Assembly (NCBI GenBank): GCA_047601445.1 | Contig: JASGJH010000001.1 | Span: 7,520,001 to 7,584,000, forward strand | Direction of reading: 5' to 3' | DNA: 64,000 bases | Source: Myxococcales bacterium | GTDB lineage: Bacteria; Myxococcota_A; Polyangia; Polyangiales; DASUME01 | In this document: positions 13,606 to 51,673 of the stretch, piece after piece | Layout of the letters: the number at the start of each line of letters is the position of its first letter | Position numbering within the stretch: position 1 is the first letter of the stretch | The notes under the pieces: generated by a model | The model's input: only the letters and a program-made list of their open reading frames with translations | Told to the model about the DNA's origin: nothing | Database searches by the model: none | Made by a program: the position numbers and the translations under genes

Positions 13606-15678
13606 TCACTGCACGAAGACATCCAGGTACATCATGTACGGGCCACTCATGCCCGAAGCCGTCACCAAGGCAGGGCGCCCGCCCACCTGGATCAGCGCCA
13701 AGCTGCCCGCGTTGTTCCCCGGAATGCAATCGACGCCCCGCGGCTCCCACCCGTCCTCGCCGAGCGTGAACACGCCCGCCTTGGTCCCTGCGTAGAGCAC
13801 CTGGCCGGGGTTGTCCCAGAGCAGCGAGTTGGCCGAAAGACTCGGTAGGCCGTCGTTCACGAACACCCACGACGTTCCGCCATCCTGCGAGCGTGCCACG
13901 CCGCGCTGCGAGATCACCGCGTAGAGGTCTTGGTCCGCCTGCACGATTTGGGGCACCGAGGCGTTCGCCAAGTCTCCGCCTACGGCGACCCACGAATCGC
14001 CGGCGTCGGAGGACTGGAACAGGCCCCGGCCATTGGTGCCGATGATCAGGTGCTGCGCGTTGTTGGGGTCGAACCAGATGCTGCGGATGTCGCGGAACGT
14101 GCCAGCGGAGGTCGCCCAAGCCTCAGGCAGTCCCGCATTGCTCTCCTGCCAAGTCAGCCCCCCATTGACGGACTTCAGCACGCCACGGGTCTGCGTCGCT
14201 GCGAGCACTGTGTTTGTGTTTCCGGGCTGGAAGGCGAACGCTAGCGCATTGCCCTTGTCGACGGCCGTGAAGGTCTGTCCCGAATTCTGCGAAAGCCAGA
14301 TCGAAGGCCAGCCCCCCACGAGCACCGTCTCGCCCGACGCGGCCATGCCGAACGCATAGTCATCGGGAAGCGCATCCAGGGACACCCGCTGCCAGCGCGC
14401 GGTATCGGCGGACCAAACCCACGGGCCGCTGCCCCACGAAGAGAGCCAGAGGGAAGGACCCATGAGCGAGAGCTGGGTGATCGAGAGGCTGCCAATGCCG
14501 TCGATCAGACTCCAGGCTTCTCCCGCGTCGGTCGATAGATAGGCGCCCGAGCGGTCACTCATGAGCACCAGATCTGGGTTGTGCTGATTCATCCGCAGGC
14601 TGTGCGTGACGGGACCGACCGTCTCGAGCAGCCCCGACTTGAGCACATCGGTCCAGCTCTCACCGCCATCGTCGGACCGCCGGATCCCCTGATTTTGCCC
14701 CTGGACGTCGAGGATGACGCGCTTGCAGTCCGCTCCGGATACTTCGATGGATTGAATCGCTGCAGCGAGCGGGATGTGATCCCAGTTCGCTCCATCGTCG
14801 ACGCTGCGGCTAACTCCGGTGGCCGTGGCGACGAAGATCACCTCGGGCATGGCTGGACAGATCGACACGTCCATCACCCGACCGCGACCGTCCAAAATGG
14901 TGTTCCAGGTGTGGCCCCCGTCGACGGTGGAGAGCACGGCTCCGAGCATGGACCAGCCGCCGGAGTCGTTGAGCTCGATGAGGCCTGCCACCGCGCGCAG
15001 AGGATCACTCGGATGCCCCTGCAAGGCCGTGATGTGGCTGTATGGGACACCCTGATTGAGGTTTCCCCACGAGTGCCCTTCATCCACGGATCCCAGGATG
15101 CCGTAGCCGATGGAGCCGGCGAGCAGTCGTCGAGGCTCGGCGGGCATCGCCAGGAGCGTCGTGATGGCGAGTCCTCCGAGCGCCTTCGGTGACCATGTGG
15201 CGCCGCTGTCATCGGAGAACAGCACGCCGTCGTTGGTGGCCGCCAAGAGCGAGTCCGGTGCGTCCGACGGGAAAGCAAGATCGACGATGCCTGCCGAAAG
15301 TGGCTCGGAGGCAACCCAGGTGTTGCCGAAGTCCGTACTCGCGTACAGCGTCTCGCCCGCGACCGCATACACACGGTCGTCGTCGCGGGGGTCGAGCCAC
15401 GCACCCGCTACATGACCAGGAGCCAGGCCATCTCCAAACCGAGTCCACGTACAAGCCGGGGACTTGCCAGCATCGCCGGCGTCCGCGCCGTCGCCCACGT
15501 TCGCCTGGACTTCCGCATCCCCGGGCCCCGCGTCGCCAAGCCCGCCGTCTCCCTCCCGGCCACCCGAGCCGCCATCACCATGGCAGCCCCCGAGCGACAA
15601 TCCGACACAGACCACGTACGGCAGGGGGCCCCCGGACGAAGCGCTATTGCGAGGCAGACGGGATGACTGAGTGACCAT
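13606..15678 (-). CDS. BNR/Asp-box (VPS10/YCF48-like) beta-propeller lipoprotein
   Basis: More than ten S-x-D-x-G-x-T/S-W boxes (STDFGNTW, SDDSGATW, SDDGGESW, SQDGGTSW). LGGC lipobox. Start chosen at the ATG at 15678, uncertain. Confidence 0.85.
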   Translation of the reverse strand: MVTQSSRLPRNSASSGGPLPYVVCVGLSLGGCHGDGGSGGREGDGGLGDAGPGDAEVQANVGDGADAGDAGKSPACTWTRFGDGLAPGHVAGAWLDPRDDDRVYAVAGETLYASTDFGNTWVASEPLSAGIVDLAFPSDAPDSLLAATNDGVLFSDDSGATWSPKALGGLAITTLLAMPAEPRRLLAGSIGYGILGSVDEGHSWGNLNQGVPYSHITALQGHPSDPLRAVAGLIELNDSGGWSMLGAVLSTVDGGHTWNTILDGRGRVMDVSICPAMPEVIFVATATGVSRSVDDGANWDHIPLAAAIQSIEVSGADCKRVILDVQGQNQGIRRSDDGGESWTDVLKSGLLETVGPVTHSLRMNQHNPDLVLMSDRSGAYLSTDAGEAWSLIDGIGSLSITQLSLMGPSLWLSSWGSGPWVWSADTARWQRVSLDALPDDYAFGMAASGETVLVGGWPSIWLSQNSGQTFTAVDKGNALAFAFQPGNTNTVLAATQTRGVLKSVNGGLTWQESNAGLPEAWATSAGTFRDIRSIWFDPNNAQHLIIGTNGRGLFQSSDAGDSWVAVGGDLANASVPQIVQADQDLYAVISQRGVARSQDGGTSWVFVNDGLPSLSANSLLWDNPGQVLYAGTKAGVFTLGEDGWEPRGVDCIPGNNAGSLALIQVGGRPALVTASGMSGPYMMYLDVFVQ

Positions 15679-15929
15679 CCGCGCATGCTCGCATGAAGCG
15701 AAAAGCGCTGACAAACGATTCCCGTCTGCGAAAATACTTCGTTTTCTCCGGCGATCGAACATGAAATTCCGGGGCGCGGCCGAGCAACCAAGGGTTCTCT
15801 CGAGCACACTCCGCGCGGGCTCTGCACCTTCTGAAAGGCGATCTGCGGCCAGCGCAAGCCGAGTCCGCGACGTGGCGTTCGGGGTGAGCCGGCTGTCTCG
15901 CCAGGGGTGACCTGGGGCATAGTCACCCC

Positions 15930-16469
15930 ATGACCAAAACTTGGATGGTACGCAGTTTCGCTGCGGGGGTGTTCCTGTTCGCTGGAGCTGCGTGTGGCGG
16001 CGACAAACAGGCCGAGGCAGCTCCGGCTTCCACGACGCCCGAGGCGCCCGCCGCGGCCAACGCGGCCGACAGCAAAACAAAGCTTCTCCACTGCGGCGAC
16101 TTCTTCACGGCCGCTGAGATCACGGCGCTCGGACTCGACGCCAGCACGTTCAAGCCTGACGAAGTACAGATGTCGCCCGGAGGACCCATCCTCTGCAACT
16201 TCGCAGGCTACGGCTTCACTCTATTCTCGGGTGACAACTATTCGAGCATCGTCGGCGGCTCGAAAGAAGCCATCGCCAAGGGGAAGATCACGGCGGCCAC
16301 CGGTCCGACCATCGGCAAAAGCAGCGAGTGGACCATCTCGTCTGGGTTGAGCACCTGCTTGATGCTGTCGACCAATGGCCGCTTTGCTGGCGTGGTGGAC
16401 GCAGGGGATCAAGCTACGACCGAGAAGTTCGCGCGAGCGCTCGACGCCAACATCAGCAAGATGCCATAG
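15930..16469 (+). CDS. Hypothetical lipoprotein
   Basis: Signal peptide with AAC-GG lipobox, Ala/Pro linker and a small Cys-containing domain. Confidence 0.75.
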   Translation: MTKTWMVRSFAAGVFLFAGAACGGDKQAEAAPASTTPEAPAAANAADSKTKLLHCGDFFTAAEITALGLDASTFKPDEVQMSPGGPILCNFAGYGFTLFSGDNYSSIVGGSKEAIAKGKITAATGPTIGKSSEWTISSGLSTCLMLSTNGRFAGVVDAGDQATTEKFARALDANISKMP

Positions 16470-16514
16470 GGTCGGCGAGCGTCTACTGCTTTACGCGGTT
16501 GGCGAAGGAAGCGC

Positions 16515-17453
16515 CTACGGCGAGGAGCTTGCGGGCGGCTTGGCGCCCTCGCTGGCAAGCGCGAACACGGTGTAGCCCGCGCTGTTGTATACGGCGGCCG
16601 TCAGCGCATAGCCGGCCGATCCCAATGACGCCGTGGTGTCCTCGAGGTCGGGCCCGACCACCTGGTCCACGAGCGTCGCGAACGTTTGTGTTCTTCCCGA
16701 AGCGCGCTGCGCGAAGAGCGTATATCCCGCATCGTTGGTGATCGCGCCCACGTGCGCGAAGCCCATGCTGGAGAAGCCGTCCAAGGTGTCGTCGAGGTCG
16801 CTGCCGATCACTTGGTCGACCATGCCGTCGAACTCGGTGGAGTCGCCCTTCAGATGCGTACCCACGAGCGTGTAGCCCGCGCTGTTGTACATGGCGGCAC
16901 TGAGCACGAAGCCCCCGGCGCCCAAATCCGAGAGGGTATCGTCGAGCTGACTCCCGATGACCTGCTCTACCCGCGCTTCGTAGGTGTCTGCCGACCCTCT
17001 CACCTTGTAGCCGAGGAGGGTATAGCCAGCGCTGTTGGTCAGCGCGGCCGTGATCGCAAAGCCATCCTCACCCATGGTCGTGAGCGTGCTGTCGAGGTCT
17101 GAGCCAACGACCTGCTCCACCTGGGTCTCGAAGCGCAGGACCGACCCCTTGTCGCGGGCAGCGAACAAGGTGTAGCCGGCATCGTTGGTGACCGCTGCCG
17201 TGACCACGTAGCCGTCGCCTGCGAGATCTTGCAAGGTCTCGTCGAGCTGATTTCCGATCACTTGCTCGACCCGCGTCTCCTTGGCGTGACCGGGCACCAA
17301 CCAGTCATGCAGGAGGGCGCTGTCCTCGGCGCTGTCGCCATCTCCATTGCCGGGGCCATCCTCATCGCCCGTGTTCACCGCGGTGCCGTTGCTACCGTCG
17401 TCCCCGCAAGCAACCAGGCCAAGACTCAGCGTCGCCACCAACCACAGCTTCAT
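16515..17453 (-). CDS. Lipoprotein built from five tandem 50-aa repeats
   Basis: LVAC lipobox and GAGG RBS. Five copies of V(E/D)QV(I/V)G..L..T......G(Y/F)....A..N(D/S)AGYT(L/V). Confidence 0.85.
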   Translation of the reverse strand: MKLWLVATLSLGLVACGDDGSNGTAVNTGDEDGPGNGDGDSAEDSALLHDWLVPGHAKETRVEQVIGNQLDETLQDLAGDGYVVTAAVTNDAGYTLFAARDKGSVLRFETQVEQVVGSDLDSTLTTMGEDGFAITAALTNSAGYTLLGYKVRGSADTYEARVEQVIGSQLDDTLSDLGAGGFVLSAAMYNSAGYTLVGTHLKGDSTEFDGMVDQVIGSDLDDTLDGFSSMGFAHVGAITNDAGYTLFAQRASGRTQTFATLVDQVVGPDLEDTTASLGSAGYALTAAVYNSAGYTVFALASEGAKPPASSSP

Positions 17454-31707: not shown

Positions 31708-32712
31708 TCACTTCGTGGGAGCGGCAGGGGCCGCAGGCACGGTCGCAGTCGCCTGCAGCGGCGCGGCTGGCTTCGGAGTGACCACAGGCGCGATCGCGGG
31801 CTTTGCGGCAGCCGGCTGTGCAGGCGCGGCGGCCACGGGGGCCGCTGCGGGCTTCGCGGCAGCCGGCTGTGCGGGCGCGGCGGCGACAGGAGCAGGAGCG
31901 ACCGCGGGCTTCGCAGCAGCGGGCTGTGCAGGCGTGGCGGGAGCCGGCTGCGCGGGTGCAGCAGCGACCGGCTGAGCCGCCGGCTGGGCAGCCGGGGCGG
32001 CCGCAGGAGCAGGAGCTGCGCTCGCGGCGAGCTTGGCTTCCTTCTCGGCCTTGGCAGCGGCGAGCTTGGCTTCCTTCTCGGCCTTGGCAGCGGCGAGCTT
32101 CGCCTCCTGCTCGGCCTTGGCGGCAGCAGCCTTGGCTTCCTTCTCGGCCTTTGCGGCGGCGAGCTTCGCCTCCCTGTCGGCCTTGGCAGCGGCGACCTTG
32201 TCGTCGCGCTCCTTCTTCTTCTGTGCGGCGTCAGCCTTCTTGCGCTCGCTCTCGAGCTTGGCCTGAGCGGTCTTCAGCGCGGCCTTGGCCTTGAAGGCCG
32301 CCTTCTGCGCATCGGCCTGCGCCTTCTTCGCGTCGGCGAGCTGTGTCTCCGCAGTGGTCAGGTTCTGCTTGGTTGCGGTCGCCTGTGCGTCCGCGTCGGT
32401 AGCCGCCTTCTCGGCCGTGGTCAGCTCCGCTTGCGCGGTGGCGACGGCGTCGCCGCTCGCAGCTGGCTGTGCGGCGGTCGCGGGTGCGGGCTGGCCGGCC
32501 GGAGCTGGCGCAGCAGGCGTTGCGGTGGCTTGTGCACCGGGCGCGGCAGTCGGCGCAGCCGGGGTCACAGCCGCTTGAGGCTCACCACCCGCGGCCGCAG
32601 TCGCCGCCGGCGTGCCTTGGCTCGCAGCGGGCGTCGAAGCATTGACTGCGCAGCCGCCGAGAGCGAGCAAGAGAACACACGAGACCAGCGTTGCCTTGGA
32701 CTTGCAGAACAT
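31708..32712 (-). CDS. Ala/Lys/Pro-rich low-complexity lipoprotein (TolA-like coiled coil)
   Basis: LGGC lipobox and GGGAGG RBS. EAKLAAAKAEK 11-aa repeats and PVAAAPAQPAAAK repeats. Confidence 0.8.
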   Translation of the reverse strand: MFCKSKATLVSCVLLLALGGCAVNASTPAASQGTPAATAAAGGEPQAAVTPAAPTAAPGAQATATPAAPAPAGQPAPATAAQPAASGDAVATAQAELTTAEKAATDADAQATATKQNLTTAETQLADAKKAQADAQKAAFKAKAALKTAQAKLESERKKADAAQKKKERDDKVAAAKADREAKLAAAKAEKEAKAAAAKAEQEAKLAAAKAEKEAKLAAAKAEKEAKLAASAAPAPAAAPAAQPAAQPVAAAPAQPAPATPAQPAAAKPAVAPAPVAAAPAQPAAAKPAAAPVAAAPAQPAAAKPAIAPVVTPKPAAPLQATATVPAAPAAPTK

Positions 32713-33245
32713 GAAAGAACCCTCCCTGGCCCTGCGAGCGCGCGCGTAACGCAATGTCGAGCATTCACGCGTTCCCCAAGGCGAGGGCGCGACCCTAACC
32801 CAAAAACCGTCTCTGCGGTCAGTAACAAGAGCGAAGCTCGAGCCATGACAGCCCTGGTCGAACTTGGTGGCCGCTTTGAAATCGGGCGCGGAAAATCAGG
32901 CCACAAGTCAGCGTTGCTAACGGCGCGCGCTTTTCACGCGATCGTCGCGCTGGCAGGGGCTCGTGACGCCTCTCCGTCTTTCGTCTAAGACCTCTGTAAG
33001 ATGTTGTAATTGTGCGCCAAAATCGACAGGCGTTGAGCCTGGTTCTCCGCGCAGTTTCCCGCTCCCGTGGGTCCCCCATTTGGAGTGGGGAAAGCGATCG
33101 AGACGGGCCAGGCTCGGGAAGGTCACGATCACGGCTCGGAAAGTCAACGCGTTGAGGTGCGAGAAGGAGCGCGATGGTCTCCCGGACGACCGTTGGTCGT
33201 AGGTCGACCGCACGATCGCCGTCCGTGACAAGCTGGTGGCGAGCC

Positions 33246-40483: not shown

Positions 40484-41932
40484 CTACCAGTCGTGGATGC
40501 CGAGCCTCTCCAACTTCAGGTAGAGCTGATGCCGTGACAGCGCCAACATGCGGGCCGCCTGAGCTTTGTTGCCGCATGCTCTCCTCAAGGCCATGCGTAT
40601 GTGGCGCCGTTCGATCTCGGAAAGCGGAGCAACCTCCAGGTCCTCGCTAGCGGTGCGGTTCGGAGCGTGGGAGAGCGTCGGTTCGAACGTGGCGCTGTCG
40701 CACATGCGGATGTGGCGCGGAAGATGGCGTGGTTCCACCAGGATGTCGGGCGCGGCGGCGCAGCAGTGCTCCACCACGTTGCGGAGCTCGCGTACGTTGC
40801 CAGGCCACGAATAGCGCGAGAGCTCGTGCAAGCTCGTCGCCGAGAATTCGGCGGGCACGCGGTGACCCTGGTCGCGCAGCTCAGCCACGAAATGGGCGAG
40901 CAAACAGGGGAGGTCCTCGAGTCGCTCGGAGAGGCGCGGAAGCTCGATCCGGTGGGCGCTCAGACGATAGAACAGGTCGGCTCGCAAGGTGCCGTGTCGG
41001 ACCGCCTCCGAGGGGTCGCGGTTGGTGGCAGCGATCACCCGCGCGTGGACCGGGGCCTCGCGCATGCCCCCGACGGGACGCACTGACTTTTGCTCCAGGG
41101 CGCGCAGCAACTTGGGCTGGGTCGCGAGCGGCATCTCGGTGATCTCGTCCAGAAACAGCGTGCCATTCCCGGCCGAGCGCATGATTCCCGGAACGCTGCC
41201 GCGGCTCCCCGTGAACGCGCCCTTTTCGTGGCCGAAGAGCTCGCTCTCGATGAGGTCGTGGGGGAGGGCGGCGCAGTTGACGGCGGCAAAGGGGGCGCTT
41301 TCATGGCCACCCAGGCGGTGCAGCGCACGGGCTACGAGTTCTTTGCCGGTGCCGCTTTCGCCCGTAATCAACACTGGACCTGGCGCGCAAGCAACGCCAG
41401 CGATCTGCGCGAACACGGCTTGCATGGCCGCGCTGCCGCCCACGAAGTCAGGCAAAAGGCTGTTCGGATCGGCGCTCTTTCCAGCTGGGGGCGGGCGTAG
41501 TCGTAGTCCGCTGTCGAGGTGTCTTTCCGCGTCAGGAAGTGCATAGGTCGCGGCGACCTGATGAGAGAGGGTGCGCCCGAGTTGCTCGACCACGTCTCGC
41601 CATTTCGGGTCTGGCACGGCCTTGTTCACGGCGACCTCGAATGCACGCATCACATCAAGGGTGTCCGCCAGTGCCAGGCCGCTCGCATGCAACTCGCCGA
41701 TGAGAGCCGAGACGTGAAGCTGCACGTCGCTCGCGCGCCCAGCGCTCAACGCCAGGAGCAGCGGCGAGAGCGCCTGCGCGAGGAGGGGGAGTAGGGGGTG
41801 CACTGCGGTTGGCAGCGCGGAGTACGACCCGAGCCAGGTACTGCGAAGCACGTCGAGCTCCCGCAGGAGCACGCGTGCGAGCAGCTGAACCTGCCGTGCG
41901 TCGGTTCCCGCTGCGCGCGCTTGGGTGCTCAC
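40484..41932 (-). CDS. Sigma-54-dependent enhancer-binding protein with non-receiver helical N-terminal domain and Fis-type HTH
   Basis: GESGTGKELVA, ESELFGHEKGAFTGS, LFLDEI, LRADLFYRL, WPGNVREL, GNKAQAARML. GTG at 41932 after AAGGAGG. Confidence 0.93.
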   Translation of the reverse strand: MSTQARAAGTDARQVQLLARVLLRELDVLRSTWLGSYSALPTAVHPLLPLLAQALSPLLLALSAGRASDVQLHVSALIGELHASGLALADTLDVMRAFEVAVNKAVPDPKWRDVVEQLGRTLSHQVAATYALPDAERHLDSGLRLRPPPAGKSADPNSLLPDFVGGSAAMQAVFAQIAGVACAPGPVLITGESGTGKELVARALHRLGGHESAPFAAVNCAALPHDLIESELFGHEKGAFTGSRGSVPGIMRSAGNGTLFLDEITEMPLATQPKLLRALEQKSVRPVGGMREAPVHARVIAATNRDPSEAVRHGTLRADLFYRLSAHRIELPRLSERLEDLPCLLAHFVAELRDQGHRVPAEFSATSLHELSRYSWPGNVRELRNVVEHCCAAAPDILVEPRHLPRHIRMCDSATFEPTLSHAPNRTASEDLEVAPLSEIERRHIRMALRRACGNKAQAARMLALSRHQLYLKLERLGIHDW

Positions 41933-42065
41933 GACGGTTCCTCCTTCTTGGTGCCCGTGCTTCTCGCTCGAAAGCAAGCTAACGGTGAGGACCGCCGAAA
42001 CTCAAGTCATGCTGGATTCATCCGAGCAAATAGTGGGGTGGCAAGCAGGCTTGACGCGCGCGGGC

Positions 42066-42887
42066 CTAGAGGTCGTCATTCGCGGCCATCGCTCCACTCA
42101 TACTCCCGTCGAGCGACGCAATCATACTGACGCGCATGCGGTCGAACGACTCGCTCAGATCCCGGACTTCCTGGGTGCCTTGGCTGCGAAACTGCACGTT
42201 CAAATTGCCCGTGCTCATCACCCGTGCTGCCTCGGCCAACTCCTGGATTGGTCGCGCGATGGTGGCACGGGCCAGCCAGCCGCCGAGTGCGACCAAGACC
42301 AGTCCGAGAAAGAGGGCCACACCTTGCACGACGTAGAGAGTCGCTACCTTACTCTCAGAGTCTGCTTGCATCAGAGAGACTGCGCCGTCCATGGCCTCCA
42401 GCAGCTGCAGATTGGTGTCCATGATGGCATCGACGTCGGGGGTGCTCTTGCCGTGAGAGGCCAAGACGGCGTTCAGATGAGTCTTGAATGCGGACCACTT
42501 GCCCTCCACGATGTCGAGCTGCTTGCGGATCTCCTCCGTGGCCGCAGGGGGCGTCTGCCGCATCTTCGTCATGTCCAGGTTCGTCGGTGCCGAGCCGCCG
42601 TCGCGCAGTGCGAACAAGGTGGACTCGAAGACCCGCATGGTGTGCCGCAAGACGTCTCGATACTCGCTCACCTGTTCTTCTCGTCCTGCGGCCGCCGCAT
42701 TGGCGAGCTGCACGCCTTCCTTGGTCATGCGCTGCGTGAGCATTCTCTGGCGGCCTGCCAGGTTGACGATGAGACCGTCGTCCTTTTGGGTCTGCAGTAC
42801 CTGAAAGCTGGCAGCGACCACGCCGCTGAGCAGTACGAGGAAGGCAGCGAAGATCAGCAGCATTCTACCTTGGATTGTCGTCAACAT
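42066..42887 (-). CDS. Membrane sensor: TM, NarX/PilJ-like periplasmic domain, TM, HAMP; no output domain
   Basis: VNLAGRQRMLTQRM motif. Second TM followed by ARPIQELAEAARVMSTGNL...EVRDLSESFDRMR, then a stop about 20 aa later. Confidence 0.85.
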   Translation of the reverse strand: MLTTIQGRMLLIFAAFLVLLSGVVAASFQVLQTQKDDGLIVNLAGRQRMLTQRMTKEGVQLANAAAAGREEQVSEYRDVLRHTMRVFESTLFALRDGGSAPTNLDMTKMRQTPPAATEEIRKQLDIVEGKWSAFKTHLNAVLASHGKSTPDVDAIMDTNLQLLEAMDGAVSLMQADSESKVATLYVVQGVALFLGLVLVALGGWLARATIARPIQELAEAARVMSTGNLNVQFRSQGTQEVRDLSESFDRMRVSMIASLDGSMSGAMAANDDL

Positions 42888-44664
42888 GCGGGGCGTTCCT
42901 TTCTGAATAGGGGGCGCCCTCCCGAAGGCGCCGTAGCAGGCAGAGGAGGTCGGCGGGAGGCCAAGCGGTGGGACGCTTGCGCAGTTCACTCGGCACGTCT
43001 TGCACGTGGGTCAACGCGGCCGCTTGCGCGTGTGCACCTCGCACGGACCACGTGGTTACGATGCGCTGCTGCGCGGCCGCCGCCACCAGCACGCTGCTTT
43101 GGGCGAGCTCCGGCCAGGGCATGCTTCCCTGCGCGCAGACGTGCTGCAGTAGTCGTGCCGCGTCAGGCGAAAAGAAGTAGCGATCCGCGGTGGCGGCAGT
43201 AGCCCACCGTGCCAAGCGAACCGAGAAGATACCTGGTGCCAGCCCGTCCTCGCCCATGCGGAGGCTGTGCGACCCGTCGTCTTCAGGCGGTCCCCACTCC
43301 TCGTCCAGGGTGGTGACCTGCACCGTGCTGATCCCGAGGCCTGCGACGCCCGCAGCCAGCTCGCGCAGCTCGAGCACTTGCCGCGCATCCAGGCCCCGAG
43401 GGCACGAGACCCAGAGGAGTGGCAACCGGCCAGAACTCTCGAGCACGCCGATCTCCATCAGAGCCTTGCCGACCTGTTCGAGCGAGCCTTCCGCGGTCAT
43501 GCCGAGCGCCTGGGTGAGCATCGCCAGCGTGCTCCCCAGCCCCCGCTGGACGGTGAGGCGTGCCAGCACCGTGCAGTTGTCCGGTGTGCCGCGGCAGGCA
43601 GCTTCGAGTACCAGCTCGGCGTGGCGAGGGGCCCGCGCGCACACGCGAATCAAGGGCGTGCGCGCCTCGAACAGCCTCTGCAGCGCCTCTCGGGTCTCAT
43701 GCTCCAGGCCTTCGTCCAGGCTGGCCTGGAGCGCCCGCTCGAGGCCATTGGGTACGAAGGGCTGGACCTGCCTCGGATCGGGTCGGATCGAGCTGGCCCC
43801 GCGCCCCTTCTCGCGCGCGGGATCCTGCGCCACCTCGGCCAGCTCCCTCGACAATTCGCTCCCAGAGTTCGGTCTTTGTCCGGGGTCCTTGGCCAGCATC
43901 GCGAGGAGAAGCTCGCTCACGCCCCGCGGAAGATGCGGCGGTAGCTTCGGCGTCAGCTCGAGGTGCGCGCCCCTCAGCTGCTGCAGATCCGGCAGGGGAA
44001 ACGGTACCCGCCCGACCAGCATGAAGTAGAGACATGCCCCCAGGCTGTACACGTCCGAGGCTGGACTCGGGGGGCCATCGCGCCACAGTTCGGGCGCCAG
44101 AAAGGCCGGTGTGCCCACGACCGGCAGCAGTCCAACGCTGTCGCCCGGGCGCTCCAGCGCCAGGCCAAAATCAGCGATTTTGACTTGTCCGTAGCGGGTG
44201 ACCAGCAGGTTGTGCGGCTTGATGTCCCGATGGATGATCCGCTCCTGGTGCGCATAGCTGAGACCGGACGCAGCCTGGCAGATCAACTCCAGCGCTTCCG
44301 CCAGCGGCAAGGGGCCCGTGCGTTGGACGCGAGTCTGAACACTGCCTCCGCCCACGTACTCGTAGACGATGAACCAAAGACCCTTGTGGCGCCCAGCATG
44401 GTAGACGCGCACCACGTGGGGATGCTCGAGCTTGGCGGCGATACGGGCTTCTTCGACGCCGCGCGTTTCACCGATCCGCCCGCTGCGTGCAGTCTTGAGC
44501 GCGACGTAGCGCCCGAGCAGGGAGTCGCGCCCGAGCAAAACGGTTCCTTCACCGCCGCGCCCGAGGTTTCCCTCGATCACGTAGTTTCCAATCAGCGTGC
44601 CCGTTGCGATGGACAGCCCGTCGTCCACTCTCTGCTCCGCCTCGGCTAGATCTGAAGTCACCAT
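42865..44664 (-). CDS. Hanks-type Ser/Thr protein kinase with C-terminal degenerate AAA/ExeA-like domain
   Basis: LGRGGEG, VALK, HRDIKPHN, DFG, GTPAFLAPE, SDVYSLG. No TM segment is evident. Confidence 0.9.
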   Translation of the reverse strand: MVTSDLAEAEQRVDDGLSIATGTLIGNYVIEGNLGRGGEGTVLLGRDSLLGRYVALKTARSGRIGETRGVEEARIAAKLEHPHVVRVYHAGRHKGLWFIVYEYVGGGSVQTRVQRTGPLPLAEALELICQAASGLSYAHQERIIHRDIKPHNLLVTRYGQVKIADFGLALERPGDSVGLLPVVGTPAFLAPELWRDGPPSPASDVYSLGACLYFMLVGRVPFPLPDLQQLRGAHLELTPKLPPHLPRGVSELLLAMLAKDPGQRPNSGSELSRELAEVAQDPAREKGRGASSIRPDPRQVQPFVPNGLERALQASLDEGLEHETREALQRLFEARTPLIRVCARAPRHAELVLEAACRGTPDNCTVLARLTVQRGLGSTLAMLTQALGMTAEGSLEQVGKALMEIGVLESSGRLPLLWVSCPRGLDARQVLELRELAAGVAGLGISTVQVTTLDEEWGPPEDDGSHSLRMGEDGLAPGIFSVRLARWATAATADRYFFSPDAARLLQHVCAQGSMPWPELAQSSVLVAAAAQQRIVTTWSVRGAHAQAAALTHVQDVPSELRKRPTAWPPADLLCLLRRLREGAPYSERNAPHVDDNPR

Positions 44665-44676
44665 GTGCCGAGCAGC

Positions 44677-45369
44677 TCACACGCGCAGCGGTTGACGCAG
44701 CGCACGCGCGGCCTCGATAAAACTCTGCTGGCGTTCGGGGTTGGGAATCTTGGCCGCCAGCCGCGTCAGGAAATCGTTGAACTGCCCGTGGCGCAGTGTG
44801 CGCGCGGTGACGCCCAGTGCCGCCAGTTGCTGCTTGAACAACACCTTTGCCGCCGGACCCGTGTAGTTCACGTAGACTCCGAGCATCTGCACGACCAGCG
44901 CCTTACCCACGGCGTCCGGTGGCACCTGCTCGCCGTAGGCGCCGCTCGAGCGCGACGTCAGGTCGGCTCCCTGGGTGAGCGAGCGGCTCACCTCGGGCGC
45001 CTTGCCCGACGCCAGCACACTCGAGGGCTCGGCGCGTGCCAGATTGAGCGCCAACACGTTCAGGGCGACGTGCAGCATCGTGATGTTCACGTCGGGGGTC
45101 GTGAGCGCGAGCACGGTGTAGGAGTCGAGTCGGCGCAGCAGGATGCCGCCGCCTTCGCAGTTCGCGAAGAACCCATCGACCCGGCCATCGTTCAGCGAGC
45201 CGAAAATGTCGAACGAAGACGCCAGGCGGCGCGTCACCTCGGTGAGGAGGATGGCCTCGTAGGGGGCGGGCAGATTGTTGGTCACACAGCGACCTGCGCC
45301 ATCGAACAGCGCCACTCCGCGTACCCCTTCGGCTTCCGACAACGATGCTAACGGTATGCTCACAGTCAT
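44677..45369 (-). CDS. Roadblock/LC7-like protein with C-terminal small helical domain
   Basis: L....GVRGVALFD..G.....NLP..Y at the N-terminus. C-terminal Y.GPAAKVLFKQ.L..LG domain. ATGA overlap with the upstream gene. Confidence 0.7.
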   Translation of the reverse strand: MTVSIPLASLSEAEGVRGVALFDGAGRCVTNNLPAPYEAILLTEVTRRLASSFDIFGSLNDGRVDGFFANCEGGGILLRRLDSYTVLALTTPDVNITMLHVALNVLALNLARAEPSSVLASGKAPEVSRSLTQGADLTSRSSGAYGEQVPPDAVGKALVVQMLGVYVNYTGPAAKVLFKQQLAALGVTARTLRHGQFNDFLTRLAAKIPNPERQQSFIEAARALRQPLRV

Positions 45370-46748
45370 CTCCCTTGGCCTGAGGCGATCTTCTTCAGCA
45401 CCGCCATCGGATTCTTGTTCGCTCCACCCATCACCAGCAGGAAGCCGAAGTCCTCGTTGACCACGTACCAGTTGGAGCTGCCCATCGAGATGCACCACGA
45501 CTCGGGTTCTCCCAGTCCGAGCTCCGCTGCGGCCTCACCGAGCTGACGCGCTGCGAGCGCAGCCACCGCGCAGCCAGTCTCGGCGTCCATCTCGCCTTCA
45601 TTGGCCACCACGCTTCCATCTCGCTCGGCGCGTGCCGCGGCGCGCAGTGTCGGAGCGCGCTGCAAGACCTCACCGAGGGCGACCTCATTCTTTGCCGTAT
45701 TGCTTGCGTTCACGGTCTTCTCCTTCTCCTGCGGCGCGTTCGGCGCGCGGGCTGGCTCCTTCGAGCTCGTCGGGTTCGTTGCCTGAGGCACCTGCGGCGT
45801 GGCTGACGCGCCCGCTCGGGCAGAGGATGCGCCGCCGGAAAAGGGCGTAAGATTCGACGTGCGGACGGTGTTGGAGCGCGATTCAGGGCTCGCTCGCGGA
45901 GCGGGCGTGGGCGAGGCTGGCGCTTTCTGTCCGCGCAGAGGTGGCAACCCTGCGGCCAGGGCGGTCGTCGTGGGGGCCGCCTCTCTCGACCGCAGATCAA
46001 GCTGCACGATGCCCGACGGATCCCCGGAAATCGCGGCCATGTTGGGCGCCTTGGCAAAGCGTCCCATGCTCCGAGATGCCCGTTCGTCGGCGATGCGCAC
46101 GGCGTCGAGGAGCAGTTGCTCGAGGCTGCCAGTGAGGTTGGCGGGTAGCGCCACTCCGGTCAAAGACTCGCAGTGGATGTCGGCATCCTCCAGCAACGCG
46201 AGTCGAGAGAAGGCTTCCACACCCTCGCCGAGCTCGTCGTTGGCCCAGGTGACATCGCCAGCTTCAATCACGATGCGCCCGTGGCTACCGAGGCCGTTGG
46301 AGACGGAAAGACCGACGCTGCGACGGGTCAGCGCCGCGAGCTGAAGGTAGTCGGCGACCGTAAAGACGGAAGCTGGTGGCGGGAGCGTTCTTACACGCTC
46401 GAGTCGCCGCTTCACGAGTTCGCGAAAGGCCGCGCCGTCAACCGGCTTCTGAATCACGTCGATGTTCGAATTCTCCGGCAGCTCAGGGCGAATCCCGACC
46501 TCCCCGGCCACGAAGATCACGGGGATCTTGAGGCCGCGGCTCGCCAACTCCGGCAGCAGATCGAGGCCCGACCCGTCGGGCAGAGAGAGCCCAGCGACCA
46601 CGAGGCGTGGCATCGTTGCGTCGAGTGCATCGATGGCCTCTTGAATGCCCCTCGCTTCGACCACGGAGATGGCCTGATGCGTGAGCAGATGCCGGCTGAG
46701 CGTTCCCCTGAGCACGATTTCATCCTCGAGGAGAAGAACTTGGTCCAT
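45366..46748 (-). CDS. Atypical receiver, DUF4388/PatA-like domain, Pro/Ala linker, roadblock-like domain
   Basis: VLLLEDE...RLVVAGLSLPDGSG...IQKPV. Then F.VADYLQL......S..L.V....GRI..E.G.V..A.....GVEAF and L...LEQLLLDAVRIADE. C-terminal alpha-beta domain. GGGAG RBS. Confidence 0.8.
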   Translation of the reverse strand: MDQVLLLEDEIVLRGTLSRHLLTHQAISVVEARGIQEAIDALDATMPRLVVAGLSLPDGSGLDLLPELASRGLKIPVIFVAGEVGIRPELPENSNIDVIQKPVDGAAFRELVKRRLERVRTLPPPASVFTVADYLQLAALTRRSVGLSVSNGLGSHGRIVIEAGDVTWANDELGEGVEAFSRLALLEDADIHCESLTGVALPANLTGSLEQLLLDAVRIADERASRSMGRFAKAPNMAAISGDPSGIVQLDLRSREAAPTTTALAAGLPPLRGQKAPASPTPAPRASPESRSNTVRTSNLTPFSGGASSARAGASATPQVPQATNPTSSKEPARAPNAPQEKEKTVNASNTAKNEVALGEVLQRAPTLRAAARAERDGSVVANEGEMDAETGCAVAALAARQLGEAAAELGLGEPESWCISMGSSNWYVVNEDFGFLLVMGGANKNPMAVLKKIASGQGR

Positions 46749-46842
46749 GCGCGACTCTCCCTGACCACCGAAATGGCGGGCAAGGCAGTGTGCCCCGCCC
46801 AGCTCCCGCTCCTCGCCTCGACGAGATGGCGGGAGGCATCGG

Positions 46843-46859
46843 TGCACGGCGCGCGCCAA
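46843..46859 (-). promoter_or_regulatory. Putative sigma-54 promoter of the 40484-46748 operon
   Basis: Minus strand TTGGCGCGCGCCGTGCA = GG-N10-GC, about 95 bp before the ATG at 46748. Confidence 0.6.
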
Positions 46860-46964
46860 CTCCGTGGGCGATGCGTGCCGTCGCGAAACTGCCCGACTTT
46901 CCTGGAAGACCAACAGACGGTCTGCACGCTACGAGGCCTTCACAGGCTGGTTGCTCGCTCCGGC

Positions 46965-47005
46965 GAGTGTCCCGATCGGAACACTCGGCTGCGATCGGTA
47001 CACTC
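46965..47005. promoter_or_regulatory. Putative upstream activator sequences
   Basis: Palindrome GAGTGTCCCGATCGGAACACTC (contains TGT-N10-ACA). Direct repeat CGATCGG(A/T)ACACTC at 46973 and 46992. Confidence 0.55.
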
Positions 47006-47160: not shown

Positions 47161-49101
47161 ATGGGCCGATCCGGAAGTCGGACCGAGGACGCCGGCGAGA
47201 CCAGTTTCCGCACGCTCTGCGAAACCTGCGGAGTCGGGTTTTGGCACATCGATAAGGCTGGCCGCACCGTCTACGTGAACGCCGCCATGTGCGCGCTGCT
47301 CGAAGCGGATTCGGCGGCCGAACTCGAGGGCGTCGGATACCACCGGTTCTTCACGGAAGAGAGCCTGGTACGCATGCGCGAGGAGCACGCCAAGCGGACG
47401 ACCGGCGCGCCCTCGACCTACGAAGCGGTGCTGATCGGGTTGCGTGGCGGACGTCGCAGCGTGGTGATCTCGGGCGCTCCGCTCACGGACAGCGCCGGCG
47501 AACTGCAGGGACTGATCGGAACTTTCACGGACATCACCGCGCGCAAGCAAGCAGAACTTGCGCTGCAGGACAGCGAGAATCGGTTGCGCTCCGTTTTTGC
47601 TGCTTCCAACGATGCCATCGCCGTCGCGCGCGCCGGCGTGTTGATGATGGTCAATCCGGCACTCTTGCGCATGTTCCGCTGCATCGACGAAGACGAACTG
47701 CGCGGACACTCGGTGCTCGAACTGATTACCCCCGCTTCGCGCGAGGATGTTGCCGAGGGCGTGCGCTTGCGCGCGGAAGGCAAGCAGCAGGTCGGCCACT
47801 ACTTCACGACCGGGATTCGCCGCAATGGCGAGGAGTTCCCTCTCGAGGTTCGCGCCGCCGTCTACCAGGAGGCCGACGCGTTTTACTCGGTGGCCATCCT
47901 GCGCGACAACACCGAGCGCATGGCGCTGGAGGAGCAACTTCGGCAGTCACAAAAAATGGACGCCCTCGGCCGCCTGGCAGGCGGCGTCGCCCACGACTTC
48001 AACAACTTGTTGATGGTGATGATGGGCTGTTCGGAGATGATCCTGGCCGACCAGAGCGCGAGCGCAAAGGTTCGACACAACGCGCAGCTCACGGTGTCGA
48101 CCGGCGAGCGCGCGGTGAGTCTGACCCGTCAGTTGCTGGCCTTGAGCCGCCGCCAGGTCATCGATCCCAGAGTCATCGATCTCGACGGGGTCGTGCAGGA
48201 GATGGCGGACATGCTGCGCCGACTGCTCGGGCCCCAAATCGAGCTGGTGGTGAAGCGGGGCGACGCGACCGCGCGCGTGAAGGCCGATCCGGGGCAGATC
48301 CAGCAAGTCGTGATGAACCTTTGCGTGAACGCGCGTGACGCCATGCCTGAAGGCGGACGCATCACGCTGGAGACCGAGCACGTGCGCTTGAGTGAAGGGC
48401 AGCTGCGCTCGTTCGTGAATACGCCCGCCGGCGACTTCATCCGCCTGGCCGTCAGCGACACGGGGCATGGGATGGACGCGGCCACGCAGGAACGCCTTTT
48501 TGAGCCCTTCTTCACGACCAAGCCGCTCGGTGAGGGGACAGGACTCGGCCTCTCCACGGTCTACGGCATCGTCAAGCAGAGCGGCGGCCATATCACGGTG
48601 AACAGCTCCGTTGGCGAGGGCAGTGTGTTCTACGTGTACCTTCCGCGCGTCGACGCGCCGCTCGCGGCGCCGCCCGCGGCGCGAAGCATTCCACCAGCTC
48701 CCCACGCATCCGATCTGACCGTACTCCTGGTCGAGGACGAGGCTTCCGTTCGGGCGCTGGTCGGGACCTTTCTCGGTGCCATTGGCTACAAGGTGATCGC
48801 CGCCAGCTCGGGCGAGGAGGCGCTAAGTCTGTTTGCGCGTCGACAGGCGGTAATCAAGCTCGTGGTGACCGACATGCTCATGCCGGGCATGTCGGGCGCC
48901 GTGCTCGCCAACGAGCTCGATCGTGTGGCTCCCGGCCTGCCGATTCTGTTCGTGTCGGGCTATCCCAGAGACAGCAGCTCCACCCTCGTCACCGCGCGTC
49001 CACGCTCGGCATTTCTCGCCAAGCCGTTCACCCCGTTGCAGCTGAAGTCGCAGCTGCAGCAGCTGCTCGCTGCGGGCGCCGACGGCGGTCGGTTGGAATG
49101 A
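47161..49101 (+). CDS. Cytoplasmic PAS-PAS hybrid histidine kinase with receiver (CckA-like)
   Basis: Two PAS/PAC domains. LAGGVAHDFNNLL, NARDAM, DTGHGM, FFTTK..GEGTGLGL. Receiver LLVEDE...TDMLMPG...FLAKP. Confidence 0.95.
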   Translation: MGRSGSRTEDAGETSFRTLCETCGVGFWHIDKAGRTVYVNAAMCALLEADSAAELEGVGYHRFFTEESLVRMREEHAKRTTGAPSTYEAVLIGLRGGRRSVVISGAPLTDSAGELQGLIGTFTDITARKQAELALQDSENRLRSVFAASNDAIAVARAGVLMMVNPALLRMFRCIDEDELRGHSVLELITPASREDVAEGVRLRAEGKQQVGHYFTTGIRRNGEEFPLEVRAAVYQEADAFYSVAILRDNTERMALEEQLRQSQKMDALGRLAGGVAHDFNNLLMVMMGCSEMILADQSASAKVRHNAQLTVSTGERAVSLTRQLLALSRRQVIDPRVIDLDGVVQEMADMLRRLLGPQIELVVKRGDATARVKADPGQIQQVVMNLCVNARDAMPEGGRITLETEHVRLSEGQLRSFVNTPAGDFIRLAVSDTGHGMDAATQERLFEPFFTTKPLGEGTGLGLSTVYGIVKQSGGHITVNSSVGEGSVFYVYLPRVDAPLAAPPAARSIPPAPHASDLTVLLVEDEASVRALVGTFLGAIGYKVIAASSGEEALSLFARRQAVIKLVVTDMLMPGMSGAVLANELDRVAPGLPILFVSGYPRDSSSTLVTARPRSAFLAKPFTPLQLKSQLQQLLAAGADGGRLE

Positions 49102-49540
49102 AAGGCGCTGAAACTGACGAGCACATGAGCTGCTCTGAAGTTGGTTGGCCCATCCCTCCATTCCAACACAATCAGGTCCCGTCGGAGCATCGGCTCCCTT
49201 GCTCACGACGCACCTCACGCGTTGACAGAATGGACACGGCGCTCTGACAGGACCGACCCCCGGCTCGGCCGCGGTGACACGACGCCACCACGGCACTGGT
49301 GCAGTTGGGAATGGGTGGTTCGGCTCCCCGTGCATGAGGGCGACTTTCGCGATGTTTGAAGATCGCTCTCTGTCCTGGCACCAACCATATGGAGAGCAGC
49401 TTGCCATTGAGCAAGCTATGATCTGCTGAGCAGCCGCCAACCAAAGCCCCTTTGGGCAACCCTCTCCCCAAGACCAATAGACGCCGGTGCCGGCGAATGC
49501 GTGTAGGCGACGCGTAGTTGGTTGGACAGCGGATCTAGAA

Positions 49541-49939
49541 ATGAGTCACGACTGCCATCGGAACTCGGACCTAGCAACATCCATCCTGCTGGTTGACGAT
49601 GACCCAGCGGTGCTGGATGCGACGCGGGCGATGCTAGATGACCTCGGATTCGAGGTGCATGCATGTCTTGGTGGAGCTGCCGCGCTCGAGGTCATCAAGG
49701 ACGCGTCCGTCCGCATTGATGCGCTCGTCAGCGATGTGGTCATGCCAGGACTCGACGGGCTCGCGCTCACGGACCTCATCGAAGTACTTCGACCGGGTAC
49801 ACCGACCATCCTCATGTCGGGTTATCCCTTCGATGGCTTGGCCGCGAAGCATCGACAGGTCGCGGTGCACTTTCTGCGTAAACCCTTTCGCATTGTCGAA
49901 CTGATCGAAGCGTTGGATCAAGCGTGTCCTACTCGCTAG
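49541..49939 (+). CDS. Single-domain response regulator
   Basis: ILLVDDD, LVSDVVMPG, ILMSGY, FLRKPF. Confidence 0.9.
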   Translation: MSHDCHRNSDLATSILLVDDDPAVLDATRAMLDDLGFEVHACLGGAAALEVIKDASVRIDALVSDVVMPGLDGLALTDLIEVLRPGTPTILMSGYPFDGLAAKHRQVAVHFLRKPFRIVELIEALDQACPTR

Positions 49940-49991
49940 CTTCCTGGCTTGCTCCGAGCTCTCGCGAACTCGAGGTCGTGTATCGACCGAG

Positions 49992-51311
49992 CTATGCCTT
50001 CTTTCCCGCGGCCGGTAACAGGATGACGAAATCAGTGCCAACGCCCTCGGTGCTGGTTGCGCGTATGCTTCCGCCGAGTCTTCTTATGATGCCGTAACAG
50101 GTTGAGAGTCCCAAGCCTGTCCCTTTGCCCTCGGCTTTCGTCGTGAAAAATGGCTCGAAGAGACGAGAAATCACGTGGGGTGGCATGCCCGTGCCCGTAT
50201 CACGCACCTTGATCTCGAGCCATCGCCCCCGGTGCGCTCGGTCGTCCTCCACGGCTTCGGCGCGCTCTCGTGCTTGAAGGTACAACGTACCGCCGTTCGG
50301 CATCGCGTCGCGCGCATTGATCGCAAGATTCAGGAGGACCTGCTCGACGTGCGTTGAACCCGCGATGATCGAAGGAAGCTCGCTCGGGATACCTACCTCC
50401 AGCCGTACGCTCGGGCCGAGCACGCGCGGAAGAAGATCGGCTAGGGCACACAAAGTGGCGCGCGAATCTATGATCGAGAGCTGCTCCGCTTCTTTGCGAG
50501 AGAATGCTAGGAGGCGCTTCGTAAGCTGGGTGGCATCCGCCGCTGCCTTGTCTGCTGCCTTGAGAATTTCGCTGGTGTGGCCAGCGAGGTTCTCGTTCAA
50601 CGAGGCTATCTGGATTGCCCCTTGGATCACCGTTAGCAGGTTGTTGAAGTCGTGCGCTACAGCTGCCGCCATGCGCCCGAGGGCGTCCATCTTCTGCGCC
50701 TGCTGGAGCTGTGATTCCAAAGCAACGGCCTGGCGTTCGCGGGTCACAACCTGCTTGAGCGCTCGCCTCGCGTTTCGGACCTGGATAGCCGAAAGGATTG
50801 CGGTTACCACGCATAGCGCAAGTCCATAGGTTGTTGCCGTCCCCCATGTTGCCGGGAGCTGCACTTCGTTGCGCGACACGACGCCCATCGCGATGACCGC
50901 GCCAGCGTTCAAGAAGGCGCTCACGATGACTCCCCGCAGTGGCAGCGTCGCCCCCGCCACGAACAAGGAGAACCCGACGAACGCAGGTCCCGGACCGATC
51001 TGTCGGTTGGCCGCCACTGCGGCGAAAACGGCTCCGGTCACGAGACAATTCAAGAGCACGGCCACCATTTGGCCGCGGCGTTCGTCCGTGGCCATGCGGT
51101 GCACGGCCGCGAACAACGGGGCGGCGAGCAGCGGCACGACCACCACTCGTGTGTCCATCCCGACCAAGAGGAGCGAAGCCGCGAGGACCAACGTAACGCA
51201 GGCAAATGCCAAGGCGATGGCGCGCACGTTGCGAACCCGGCGTCGACGATCGAGACGTTCGACCCGCGCGCGTACGTCATCGAGCTCTAGCGAGCTAGTT
51301 AGCGAGGCCAT
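49992..51311 (-). CDS. Membrane-bound sensor histidine kinase
   Basis: About 5-6 TM segments. VAHDFNNLL, NARDAM, DTGTGM, FFTTK..GKGTGLGL. Start is uncertain. Confidence 0.9.
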   Translation of the reverse strand: MASLTSSLELDDVRARVERLDRRRRVRNVRAIALAFACVTLVLAASLLLVGMDTRVVVVPLLAAPLFAAVHRMATDERRGQMVAVLLNCLVTGAVFAAVAANRQIGPGPAFVGFSLFVAGATLPLRGVIVSAFLNAGAVIAMGVVSRNEVQLPATWGTATTYGLALCVVTAILSAIQVRNARRALKQVVTRERQAVALESQLQQAQKMDALGRMAAAVAHDFNNLLTVIQGAIQIASLNENLAGHTSEILKAADKAAADATQLTKRLLAFSRKEAEQLSIIDSRATLCALADLLPRVLGPSVRLEVGIPSELPSIIAGSTHVEQVLLNLAINARDAMPNGGTLYLQARERAEAVEDDRAHRGRWLEIKVRDTGTGMPPHVISRLFEPFFTTKAEGKGTGLGLSTCYGIIRRLGGSIRATSTEGVGTDFVILLPAAGKKA

Positions 51312-51673
51312 GCTAGAGGCCGAGCCAGGTGGATGCACCCATTTTGCACGAGGTTCGACGGATGCTTCACCGTCCACCGATGCATATCAAGTGTCAGCAT
51401 ACTGCTTGCGGCGGGCCGGTCTCTCTTCTCCGGCATCAAGGAAACAGCGGCCGCCTTCGAGCGCTGCACGGGTCCAACCATTGACGAGGGGGCAGCATGC
51501 AGGAGAGCGCTCCCGGGCACTTGCTAGGTCGCCTGACGACGGGCGGTCAATGTTCGTGGCCATCGCAGTCACTCCCGTCGAGCACGCGACCAGGAGCGAC
51601 GCAGGAGAGGAATCCGCGATATCCGTCCCAACGTTTTTCGCCAAGGATCGCCGATGCCGCCGCAGTAAAGGGA

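Follow-up and report, generated by a model that had tools for sequence, protein, structure and literature searches.

An effector-less HAMP receptor with a predicted nitrate site, a roadblock protein with a likely STAC domain, a Ser/Thr kinase, and a sigma-54 activator encoded in one operon of a Myxococcales bacterium

How does a membrane receptor that ends shortly after its HAMP domain pass on its signal? The question is raised by a five-gene operon of a Myxococcales bacterium (assembly GCA_047601445.1), the genome of which is one 9.5-Mb contig (JASGJH010000001.1). The operon lies in a stretch of 64,000 nucleotides (positions 7,520,001 to 7,584,000 of the forward strand), called the window here, and coordinates are those of the window unless another locus is named. 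All five open reading frames are on the minus strand and each is intact:

46748-45366, minus strand: gene 1, with Pfam REC and DUF4388/PATAN domains, a low-complexity linker, and a C-terminal roadblock-like domain at 45701-45369.
45369-44677, minus strand: gene 2, with a roadblock domain (residues 1-116) and a STAC-like, probably four-helix domain (residues 146-230, PF26309; 44934-44680).
44664-42865, minus strand: gene 3, a Hanks Ser/Thr kinase with a C-terminal domain of ExeA/AAA_22 fold that has no Walker A.
42887-42066, minus strand: gene 4, a receptor built as transmembrane helix-PilJ-transmembrane helix-HAMP, without an effector; Pfam finds PilJ and HAMP, then nothing.
41932-40484, minus strand: gene 5, a sigma-54 enhancer-binding protein with Pfam Sigma54_activat and HTH_8 domains.

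A preliminary description of this DNA had proposed an undescribed signaling system, in which the sensor works through roadblock/DUF4388 adaptors and a Hanks kinase on the activator, independently of phosphotransfer from histidine to aspartate (His-Asp). Its account of five co-oriented genes was accurate, as were the junctions, which run in order as an ATGA overlap at 45366-45369, a gap of 12 bp, an overlap of 23 bp, and a gap of 133 bp (the gene 5 frame opens at 41977; its Atlas record begins at 41932). Its reading of the domains was incomplete: it had no STAC-like domain, no nitrate N-box, no degenerate ExeA-type domain, and neither promoter nor enhancer. We conclude that the five-gene system is a variant of a described, mechanistically open kind, one for which both ligand and read-out can be predicted.

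Its sequence places gene 4 among the effector-less HAMP receptors of the Af1503 type. When its family profile was compared with the PDB, the top matches were the AF1503 HAMP (E 1e-10) and McpN (E 1.3e-10). Its tail, SFDRMRVS, is Af1503-like; both arginines of the RMRxS motif are invariant in 117 aligned rows, and 14-28 residues remain after the motif in the listed relatives that carry it (95/120). According to published work, Af1503-like receptors have no effector and are coupled to STAC proteins of 60-90 residues with an LGPx(x)A motif (PMC4834066; here and below, statements taken from published work hold for the portions of each source available to us). As for such genomic coupling, a STAC-like domain lies two genes upstream of gene 4. 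The sensor region contains an N-box, VNLAGRQRMLTQ (42767-42732), that fits the pattern [IVL][ND]xAGxQRML[ST]Q at 12/12 positions. This is the N-box pattern of McpN, in which the Arg is required for nitrate binding (PMC6381276). Among the 120 proteins listed for the gene 4 family, 95 match strictly and 116 in relaxed form, and we predict that gene 4 binds nitrate. The matches listed include 119 relatives of 191-293 residues with PilJ alone or, mostly, PilJ plus HAMP; gene 4 is therefore not a truncation, and the claim of an output-less sensor is borne out for the family as listed. We considered a truncated methyl-accepting chemotaxis protein (MCP) or NarX pseudogene and rejected both, the listed relatives being equally short and the N-box kept. 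At its very end (42066-42080 in the window) the family usually has a Gly-rich linker and an acidic DDL (61-75% per position), possibly a docking peptide.

Gene 2 itself has no Pfam match. The model of its N-terminal domain has the roadblock fold (Foldseek E 5e-7; VIA Z 16.2) and aligns with MglB at a VIA Z of 15.1 across 118 residues. Thus, the roadblock call of the preliminary description holds for gene 2 by modeled fold (Z 15-16), whereas for gene 1 the support comes from relatives alone: the C-terminal domain of the window copy has no Pfam match and no clear PDB sequence match, and among 31 relatives of that domain 5 match Robl_LC7 (best E 2.6e-4), 5 LAMTOR5, and 7 DUF2173.

The C-terminal domain of gene 2 is PF26309, which we take to be DUF8082. 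Its consensus YLGPAA, placed as LGPx(x)A between helices 1 and 2, has near-invariant G, P, and A in 32 rows; the window copy reads YTGPAA. In a profile search Af1502 (5A1Q) was the best natural sequence of 177,635 (E 0.0085), a designed repeat protein scoring higher via summed weak repeats. The same structure ranked first in Foldseek (weak E of 0.15, TM scores 0.52/0.61) and in VIA (weak Z of 6.7, root-mean-square deviation 2.7, 68/68 residues aligned). The region forms four helices in the full-protein model; in the domain model the first two are merged into one. We searched 401 genomes from the sensor side and found 12 places in 11 genomes, of which 7 are output-less and 5 have histidine kinase or MCP outputs. 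By profile, a STAC gene lies no more than two genes upstream of the output-less receptor in four of the seven; the other three, all of one genus, have a weak candidate seen by eye. No STAC gene was found beside any of the five receptors with outputs within a 1.5-kb flank, which is a shorter test. Because the three weak scores agree with one another and are joined by the motif and the gene context, we consider that this part of gene 2 is likely a STAC domain. It is the one STAC-like domain in this genome. Complex prediction for the HAMP dimer plus the STAC-like domain gave a score of 0.23, below the mark of 0.32, and is not used as evidence.

The arrangement recurs elsewhere. An alignment of 35 gene 2 proteins led us to 7 loci from genomes and 32 from metagenomes, in which synteny was counted by tblastn and six-frame hidden Markov model scans. 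Redundant loci did not enter the counts: L014 and L020 share >99.8% identity with L013 and L003, L055 repeats the DNA of L005, and from the L027-L040 cluster (at least 90% identity) one or two members were retained. The order 1-2-3-4-5 was found in seven other distinct loci (L002, L003, L005, L012, L013, L018, and L022; in L018 gene 1 is cut by the contig end), and several further loci are compatible but incomplete. Gene 2 identity across the window and these seven is 46-88%. The synteny on which the single-operon proposal depended is thus conserved and not due to chance. Wherever a kinase-containing locus extends far enough, the activator follows the receptor (7/7). The gene 2 family has 628 representatives at E <= 0.001, and its profile matches 11 of 401 genomes of the phylum, a patchy distribution. 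The single gene 2 protein had no match in 60 close relatives (9 same-genus and 51 same-order genomes, many of them fragmented assemblies) and none in a plasmid collection. A tree built from 25 roadblock-STAC proteins resolved little of the branching order.

Variant loci delimit the part of the operon that is shared. The roadblock/STAC pair occurs beside output-less sensors of other kinds, namely double PilJ-HAMP (L007), dCache-HAMP (L008), and Tll0287-HAMP (L058, L028), and a roadblock pair with STAC occurs with no receptor in view in L059, L060, and L062. Fusion partners of the gene 1 roadblock are REC-PATAN, a kinase (L061 and, weakly, L079), and an MglA-type GTPase (L060); in L025 and L058 it has none. 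From these variants we therefore conclude that, by gene content, the core is receptor plus STAC plus two roadblocks, and that the kinase and the activator are additions found in a single group.

Other forms of the module were seen as well. Three proteins (P0174, P0169, and P0182) carry roadblock-STAC fused to a SpoIIE phosphatase or Ser/Thr kinase, or DUF4388 fused to STAC, and PP2C genes stand ahead of the module in L023, L033, and L036; such fusions and neighbors point to Ser/Thr phosphorylation as a recurring partner. L079-L081 and L083 contain a divergent trio of kinase-roadblock fusion, roadblock-STAC-like gene, and output-less receptor with a degenerate N-box. In L056 (5695-13899) and L057 (5678-11312), roadblock-STAC comes after an Amt ammonium transporter, with kinase-ExeA, gene 1-like, and OmpA-type genes in the same cluster, possibly an ammonium transceptor read by STAC. 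The genome under study also has a second pair (G000:C1:2815404-2816948; L065:8405-9949), in which a roadblock protein with a proline-rich tail comes after a DUF4388 plus roadblock-like protein; this pair has no STAC match, and no receptor was found in its 19-kb region.

What, then, is the read-out? The region upstream of gene 1 contains three elements, the first scored against what we take to be the sigma-54 -24/-12 consensus:

46843-46858, minus strand: sigma-54 -24/-12 box, TGGCGCGCGCCGTGCA.
46968-46983, no strand assigned: palindromic enhancer-like site, 1 mismatch from TGTCCCGATCGGGACA, predicted as the likely site of the gene 5 activator.
46987-47002, no strand assigned: second, weaker copy of the palindrome in tandem, 5 mismatches.

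A sigma-54 box lies upstream of gene 1 in 11/11 loci, 35-110 nt ahead of the start and with 10-11/12 consensus positions; at the 10 loci tested, only 0-3 of 500 shuffles reached 10 positions. No conserved box was found in the gaps between receptor and activator, where one of eight reaches 9/12 and none 10. The palindrome TGTCCCGATCGGGACA lies upstream of the box in all 10 loci with enough flank, and the tandem pair is present in 7/9 homologous loci. In the window the site is the sole match at <=3 mismatches, which alone is not above chance (39/100 shuffles reach 1 mismatch). A matrix derived from the nine remaining loci gives the window site the top score across the 9.5-Mb genome: 205 sites score at least 10, six of these are near a sigma-54 box, and the window site alone exceeds 14; the next five matches are CPDPDN-type coding repeats. 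A held-out locus retrieved via the DNA motif alone (G442:C393) has a perfect palindrome and a sigma-54 box leading to a gene 1 homologue. Among the fetched tandem-site loci, strong site and box occur together at operon promoters alone, the strong site of G598:C290 being intragenic and boxless. The palindrome was found in none of 13 upstream regions of activator-less variant loci, two of which have a sigma-54 box; these regions, of 70-605 nt, were hand-picked and come from more distant loci. Since the palindrome is present with the operon and absent from those regions, the activator likely binds it and drives its own operon. The functional link between activator and operon in the preliminary description is supported by a common sigma-54 promoter and an enhancer-like palindrome across loci. 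A wider regulon defined by degenerate palindrome patterns was rejected as too noisy, 111 of 301 genomes matching.

The catalytic and receiver domains differ in how well they are preserved. The kinase domain of gene 3 (Pfam Pkinase E 1e-47) has VAxK, HRDxKPxN, and DFG intact, and HRD..N and DFG are present in 11/11 homologues. Its C-terminal domain resembles ExeA/AAA_22 clusters by predicted structure (Atlas TM 0.54-0.61), and Walker A is missing from 14 of 15 aligned rows, L062 being the sole carrier; the tail is likely a dead ExeA-type ATPase. Gene 5 (Sigma54_activat, Pfam E 8.5e-62) has the motifs GESGTGKE, GAFTGS, and FLDEI and a Fis-type helix-turn-helix, and its loop reads GAFTGS in six of eight members, GSFTGS in one, and GAFTGG in one. 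The N-terminal domain of gene 5 is helical, weakly conserved, and of no assigned family: its Atlas feature score is 0.86 to a cluster with 18% RsbRD_N, the RsbRD_N profile matched 0/8 members, and there was no clear PDB match. In the gene 1 receiver of the window, Asp53 is replaced by Gly and the Thr by Ala, with the Lys retained. Because the acceptor Asp is present in 11/11 homologues (10/10 aligned plus L127) and Gly occurs here alone, the alignment places the pseudo-receiver as a loss local to this genome. His-Asp independence, which the preliminary description had taken as a property of the system, is accordingly not borne out.

Sequence and comparison among loci establish the order of the genes, their domain make-up, the N-box, the missing effector, the promoter box, and the palindrome. 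For how the parts work together, we give an even chance to contact signaling, in which the nitrate-bound receptor would act on STAC, a roadblock heterodimer, and the kinase, and these on the activator, with positive feedback. We infer all contacts in this pathway, as well as its order from sensor through adaptors and kinase to activator. Nitrate would bind at the PilJ dimer axis, as in McpN and NarX, and the STAC domain of gene 2 would read the HAMP dimer and the conserved RMRxS tail. The roadblocks of genes 1 and 2 would heterodimerize, so that REC-PATAN is brought to the receptor, and the kinase, with its dead ExeA-type domain as scaffold, would phosphorylate or release a partner. Finally, the helical N-terminal domain of the activator would take the signal, and the activator, bound to the tandem palindrome, would complete a loop of positive feedback. 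Most relatives keep a receiver through which a kinase elsewhere in the genome could supply a His-Asp input; this genome has lost that route. The broader proposal is of a complete pathway from an Af1503-type nitrate receptor through a STAC-roadblock complex and a Hanks kinase to a sigma-54 activator, without histidine kinase or GTPase, and with STAC as a general reader of effector-less HAMP receptors and Amt-type sensors; this we hold tentatively, with doubt outweighing belief.

Several observations weigh against contact signaling. Each of the STAC scores is weak, with a Foldseek E of 0.15 and a Z of 6.7 that ties with an unrelated fold at 6.4, and deletion of STAC from CbrA or CrbS caused no obvious growth defect (PMC5715377). 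The five-gene loci belong to related lineages, and counts of co-occurrence are not independent. Receptor and STAC occur without an adjacent activator in L006, L024, L025, L026, L039, and L063; judged by gene content, kinase and activator are dispensable. The STAC gene occurs without a receptor in the fetched flank of L059, L060, L062, and L064, and beside an Amt transporter in L056 and L057. The choice of the 13 control regions also counts here, and a matrix scan found no further palindrome targets in this genome. Nothing ties the state of the receptor directly to the activator. As for nitrate, no nitrate gene beside the operon is conserved (a NarK-family gene in 1/7 loci), and narG was not found in the genome. 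The genome does encode rpoN, nirB, and two NarK-like genes below cut-off. Membrane transporters are frequent, though not obligatory, neighbors of Af1503-like receptors. No transporter is among the five genes; near related operons there is a NarK-family gene after L022, an MMPL gene before L003, and Amt in L056/L057. The transporter of L022 is of the NarK/NarU family and immediately follows the activator (15266-16681), and nirB in the genome under study (G000:C1:6313269-6315648) is in two overlapping frames (model positions 1-519 and 516-794), a split gene or a frameshift, and adjoins a NarK-like gene.

The same genes could instead serve motility: the roadblock heterodimer would target a GTPase of the MglA family whose gene lies elsewhere, PATAN would target the motor of the type IV pilus, and the activator would do no more than set operon expression in answer to a separate cue. 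Five MglA-family genes are present elsewhere in the genome (found with a protein query; the PF03029 profile missed them), PATAN binds PilB1 in Synechocystis (10.1101/2021.06.11.447907), PATAN genes lie near some mglA genes (PMC4316618), and the activator has no evident target outside the operon. One locus even fuses the two parts: at L060:8027-9741 a gene 1 roadblock homologue is fused to an MglA-type GTPase, immediately ahead of roadblock-STAC. However, an MglA-type gene is present in just 1 of 32 related loci examined, and the activator comes after the receptor in 7/7 kinase-containing loci of sufficient length. We regard the motility explanation, the main rival, as less likely than contact signaling, with which it can coexist.

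Should the receptor rather modulate a histidine kinase elsewhere, the operon would be a satellite of two-component signaling, with the gene 1 receiver as its switch and this genome's variant locked. The receiver Asp of all 11 homologues fits such a role, as do a REC-STAC fusion beside histidine kinases in L064 and the hybrid kinase divergently adjacent to the operon here. But a histidine kinase beside the operon is not conserved, in L025, L058, L060, L061, and L079 the place of the receiver is taken by a kinase, a GTPase, or a roadblock standing alone, and the copy that has lost its Asp still keeps promoter, enhancer, and all frames, which together make a satellite role improbable. We rate lower still, as very improbable, a decaying cassette gained horizontally by this genome. 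Losses of the receiver Asp and Thr and of Walker A could be taken for decay, and gene 2 was not found in the same-genus and same-order genomes described above, many of them fragmented. Yet the five frames are all intact, the missing Walker A (14/15 aligned homologues) is a family trait, and the copy retains the N-box, the motifs of kinase and activator, and both promoter and enhancer.

The cluster itself contains no histidine kinase, Che gene, or GTPase, in agreement with the preliminary description; a divergent hybrid histidine kinase starts at 47161:

47161-49101, plus strand: hybrid kinase with Pfam domains PAS-PAS-HisKA-HATPase-REC, probably outside the system.

We rejected this kinase as a member of the system, there being no orthologue beside 32 related loci, merely distant two-component matches in L003 and L017. 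It belongs to a separate two-component cluster at 47161-51377, the other members of which are a receiver on its own (49487-49939) and, in convergent orientation, a membrane histidine kinase (49992-51377). Farther away, at 31708-32754, the window encodes a predicted Ala/Lys-rich lipoprotein with AKAEKEAKLAA and AAAPAQP repeats.

Among known systems, the closest is Af1503/Af1502 of Archaeoglobus fulgidus (PMC4834066). There too the receptor has nothing but HAMP in the cytosol, its HAMP tail is similar, and it is coupled in the genome to a protein with a GP motif, of four helices there and probably so here. The present system differs in being bacterial, in having its likely STAC domain fused to a roadblock, in having a sensor whose ligand can be predicted, and in its REC-PATAN-roadblock protein, Ser/Thr kinase, and sigma-54 activator in place of an MgtE-type transporter. 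McpN, NarX, and NarQ have the same PilJ four-helix sensor with an N-box/P-box G-x-x-R, two transmembrane helices, and HAMP (PMC6381276, PMC8199190), whereas gene 4 has no MCP or histidine kinase output and ends ~20 residues past the HAMP motif. The SLC5-STAC kinases CbrA and CrbS also place STAC between a membrane sensor and cytosolic signaling, its role being described as unclear (PMC13488458, PMC5715377), but there STAC is in one polypeptide and docks under the SLC5 transporter; in the present operon an adaptor protein of its own carries it, and its partner would be the HAMP dimer (Amt in L056 and L057). Roadblock proteins by a membrane sensor and PATAN neighbors are also features of MglA/MglB/MglC and of the actinobacterial conservon (PMC4316618), whereas this operon has neither a GTPase nor a CvnA-type histidine kinase. 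The PATAN response regulators PatA and PixE combine receiver and PATAN/DUF4388 in a single protein (10.1101/2021.06.11.447907); gene 1 differs in its order REC-PATAN-roadblock and in lying outside any chemosensory cluster. In the literature searched, which did not include subscription journals or supplements, we found neither DUF4388 with roadblock, nor STAC with roadblock and HAMP, nor Af1503 with effector and roadblock, and no mention of DUF8082 or PF26309. The claim of an undescribed system stands in that the five-gene composition was not found there, but not in full, as genes 2 and 4 tie it to the described Af1503/Af1502 pair.

The Af1503 HAMP is a standard structural model of transmembrane signaling, and both the target of the effector-less receptor and the role of STAC are described as unresolved (PMC4834066, PMC5715377, PMC13488458). 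The variant is valuable because ligand and read-out are both predictable: it offers a small ligand, nitrate, predicted from a motif whose Arg has been tested, and a read-out of its own, namely a sigma-54 promoter whose enhancer is conserved. The assignment would make PF26309 a STAC-like family, and the 6.6-kb cassette bears on two questions: is HAMP read by STAC, and can a Hanks kinase take the place of His-Asp transfer to a sigma-54 activator?

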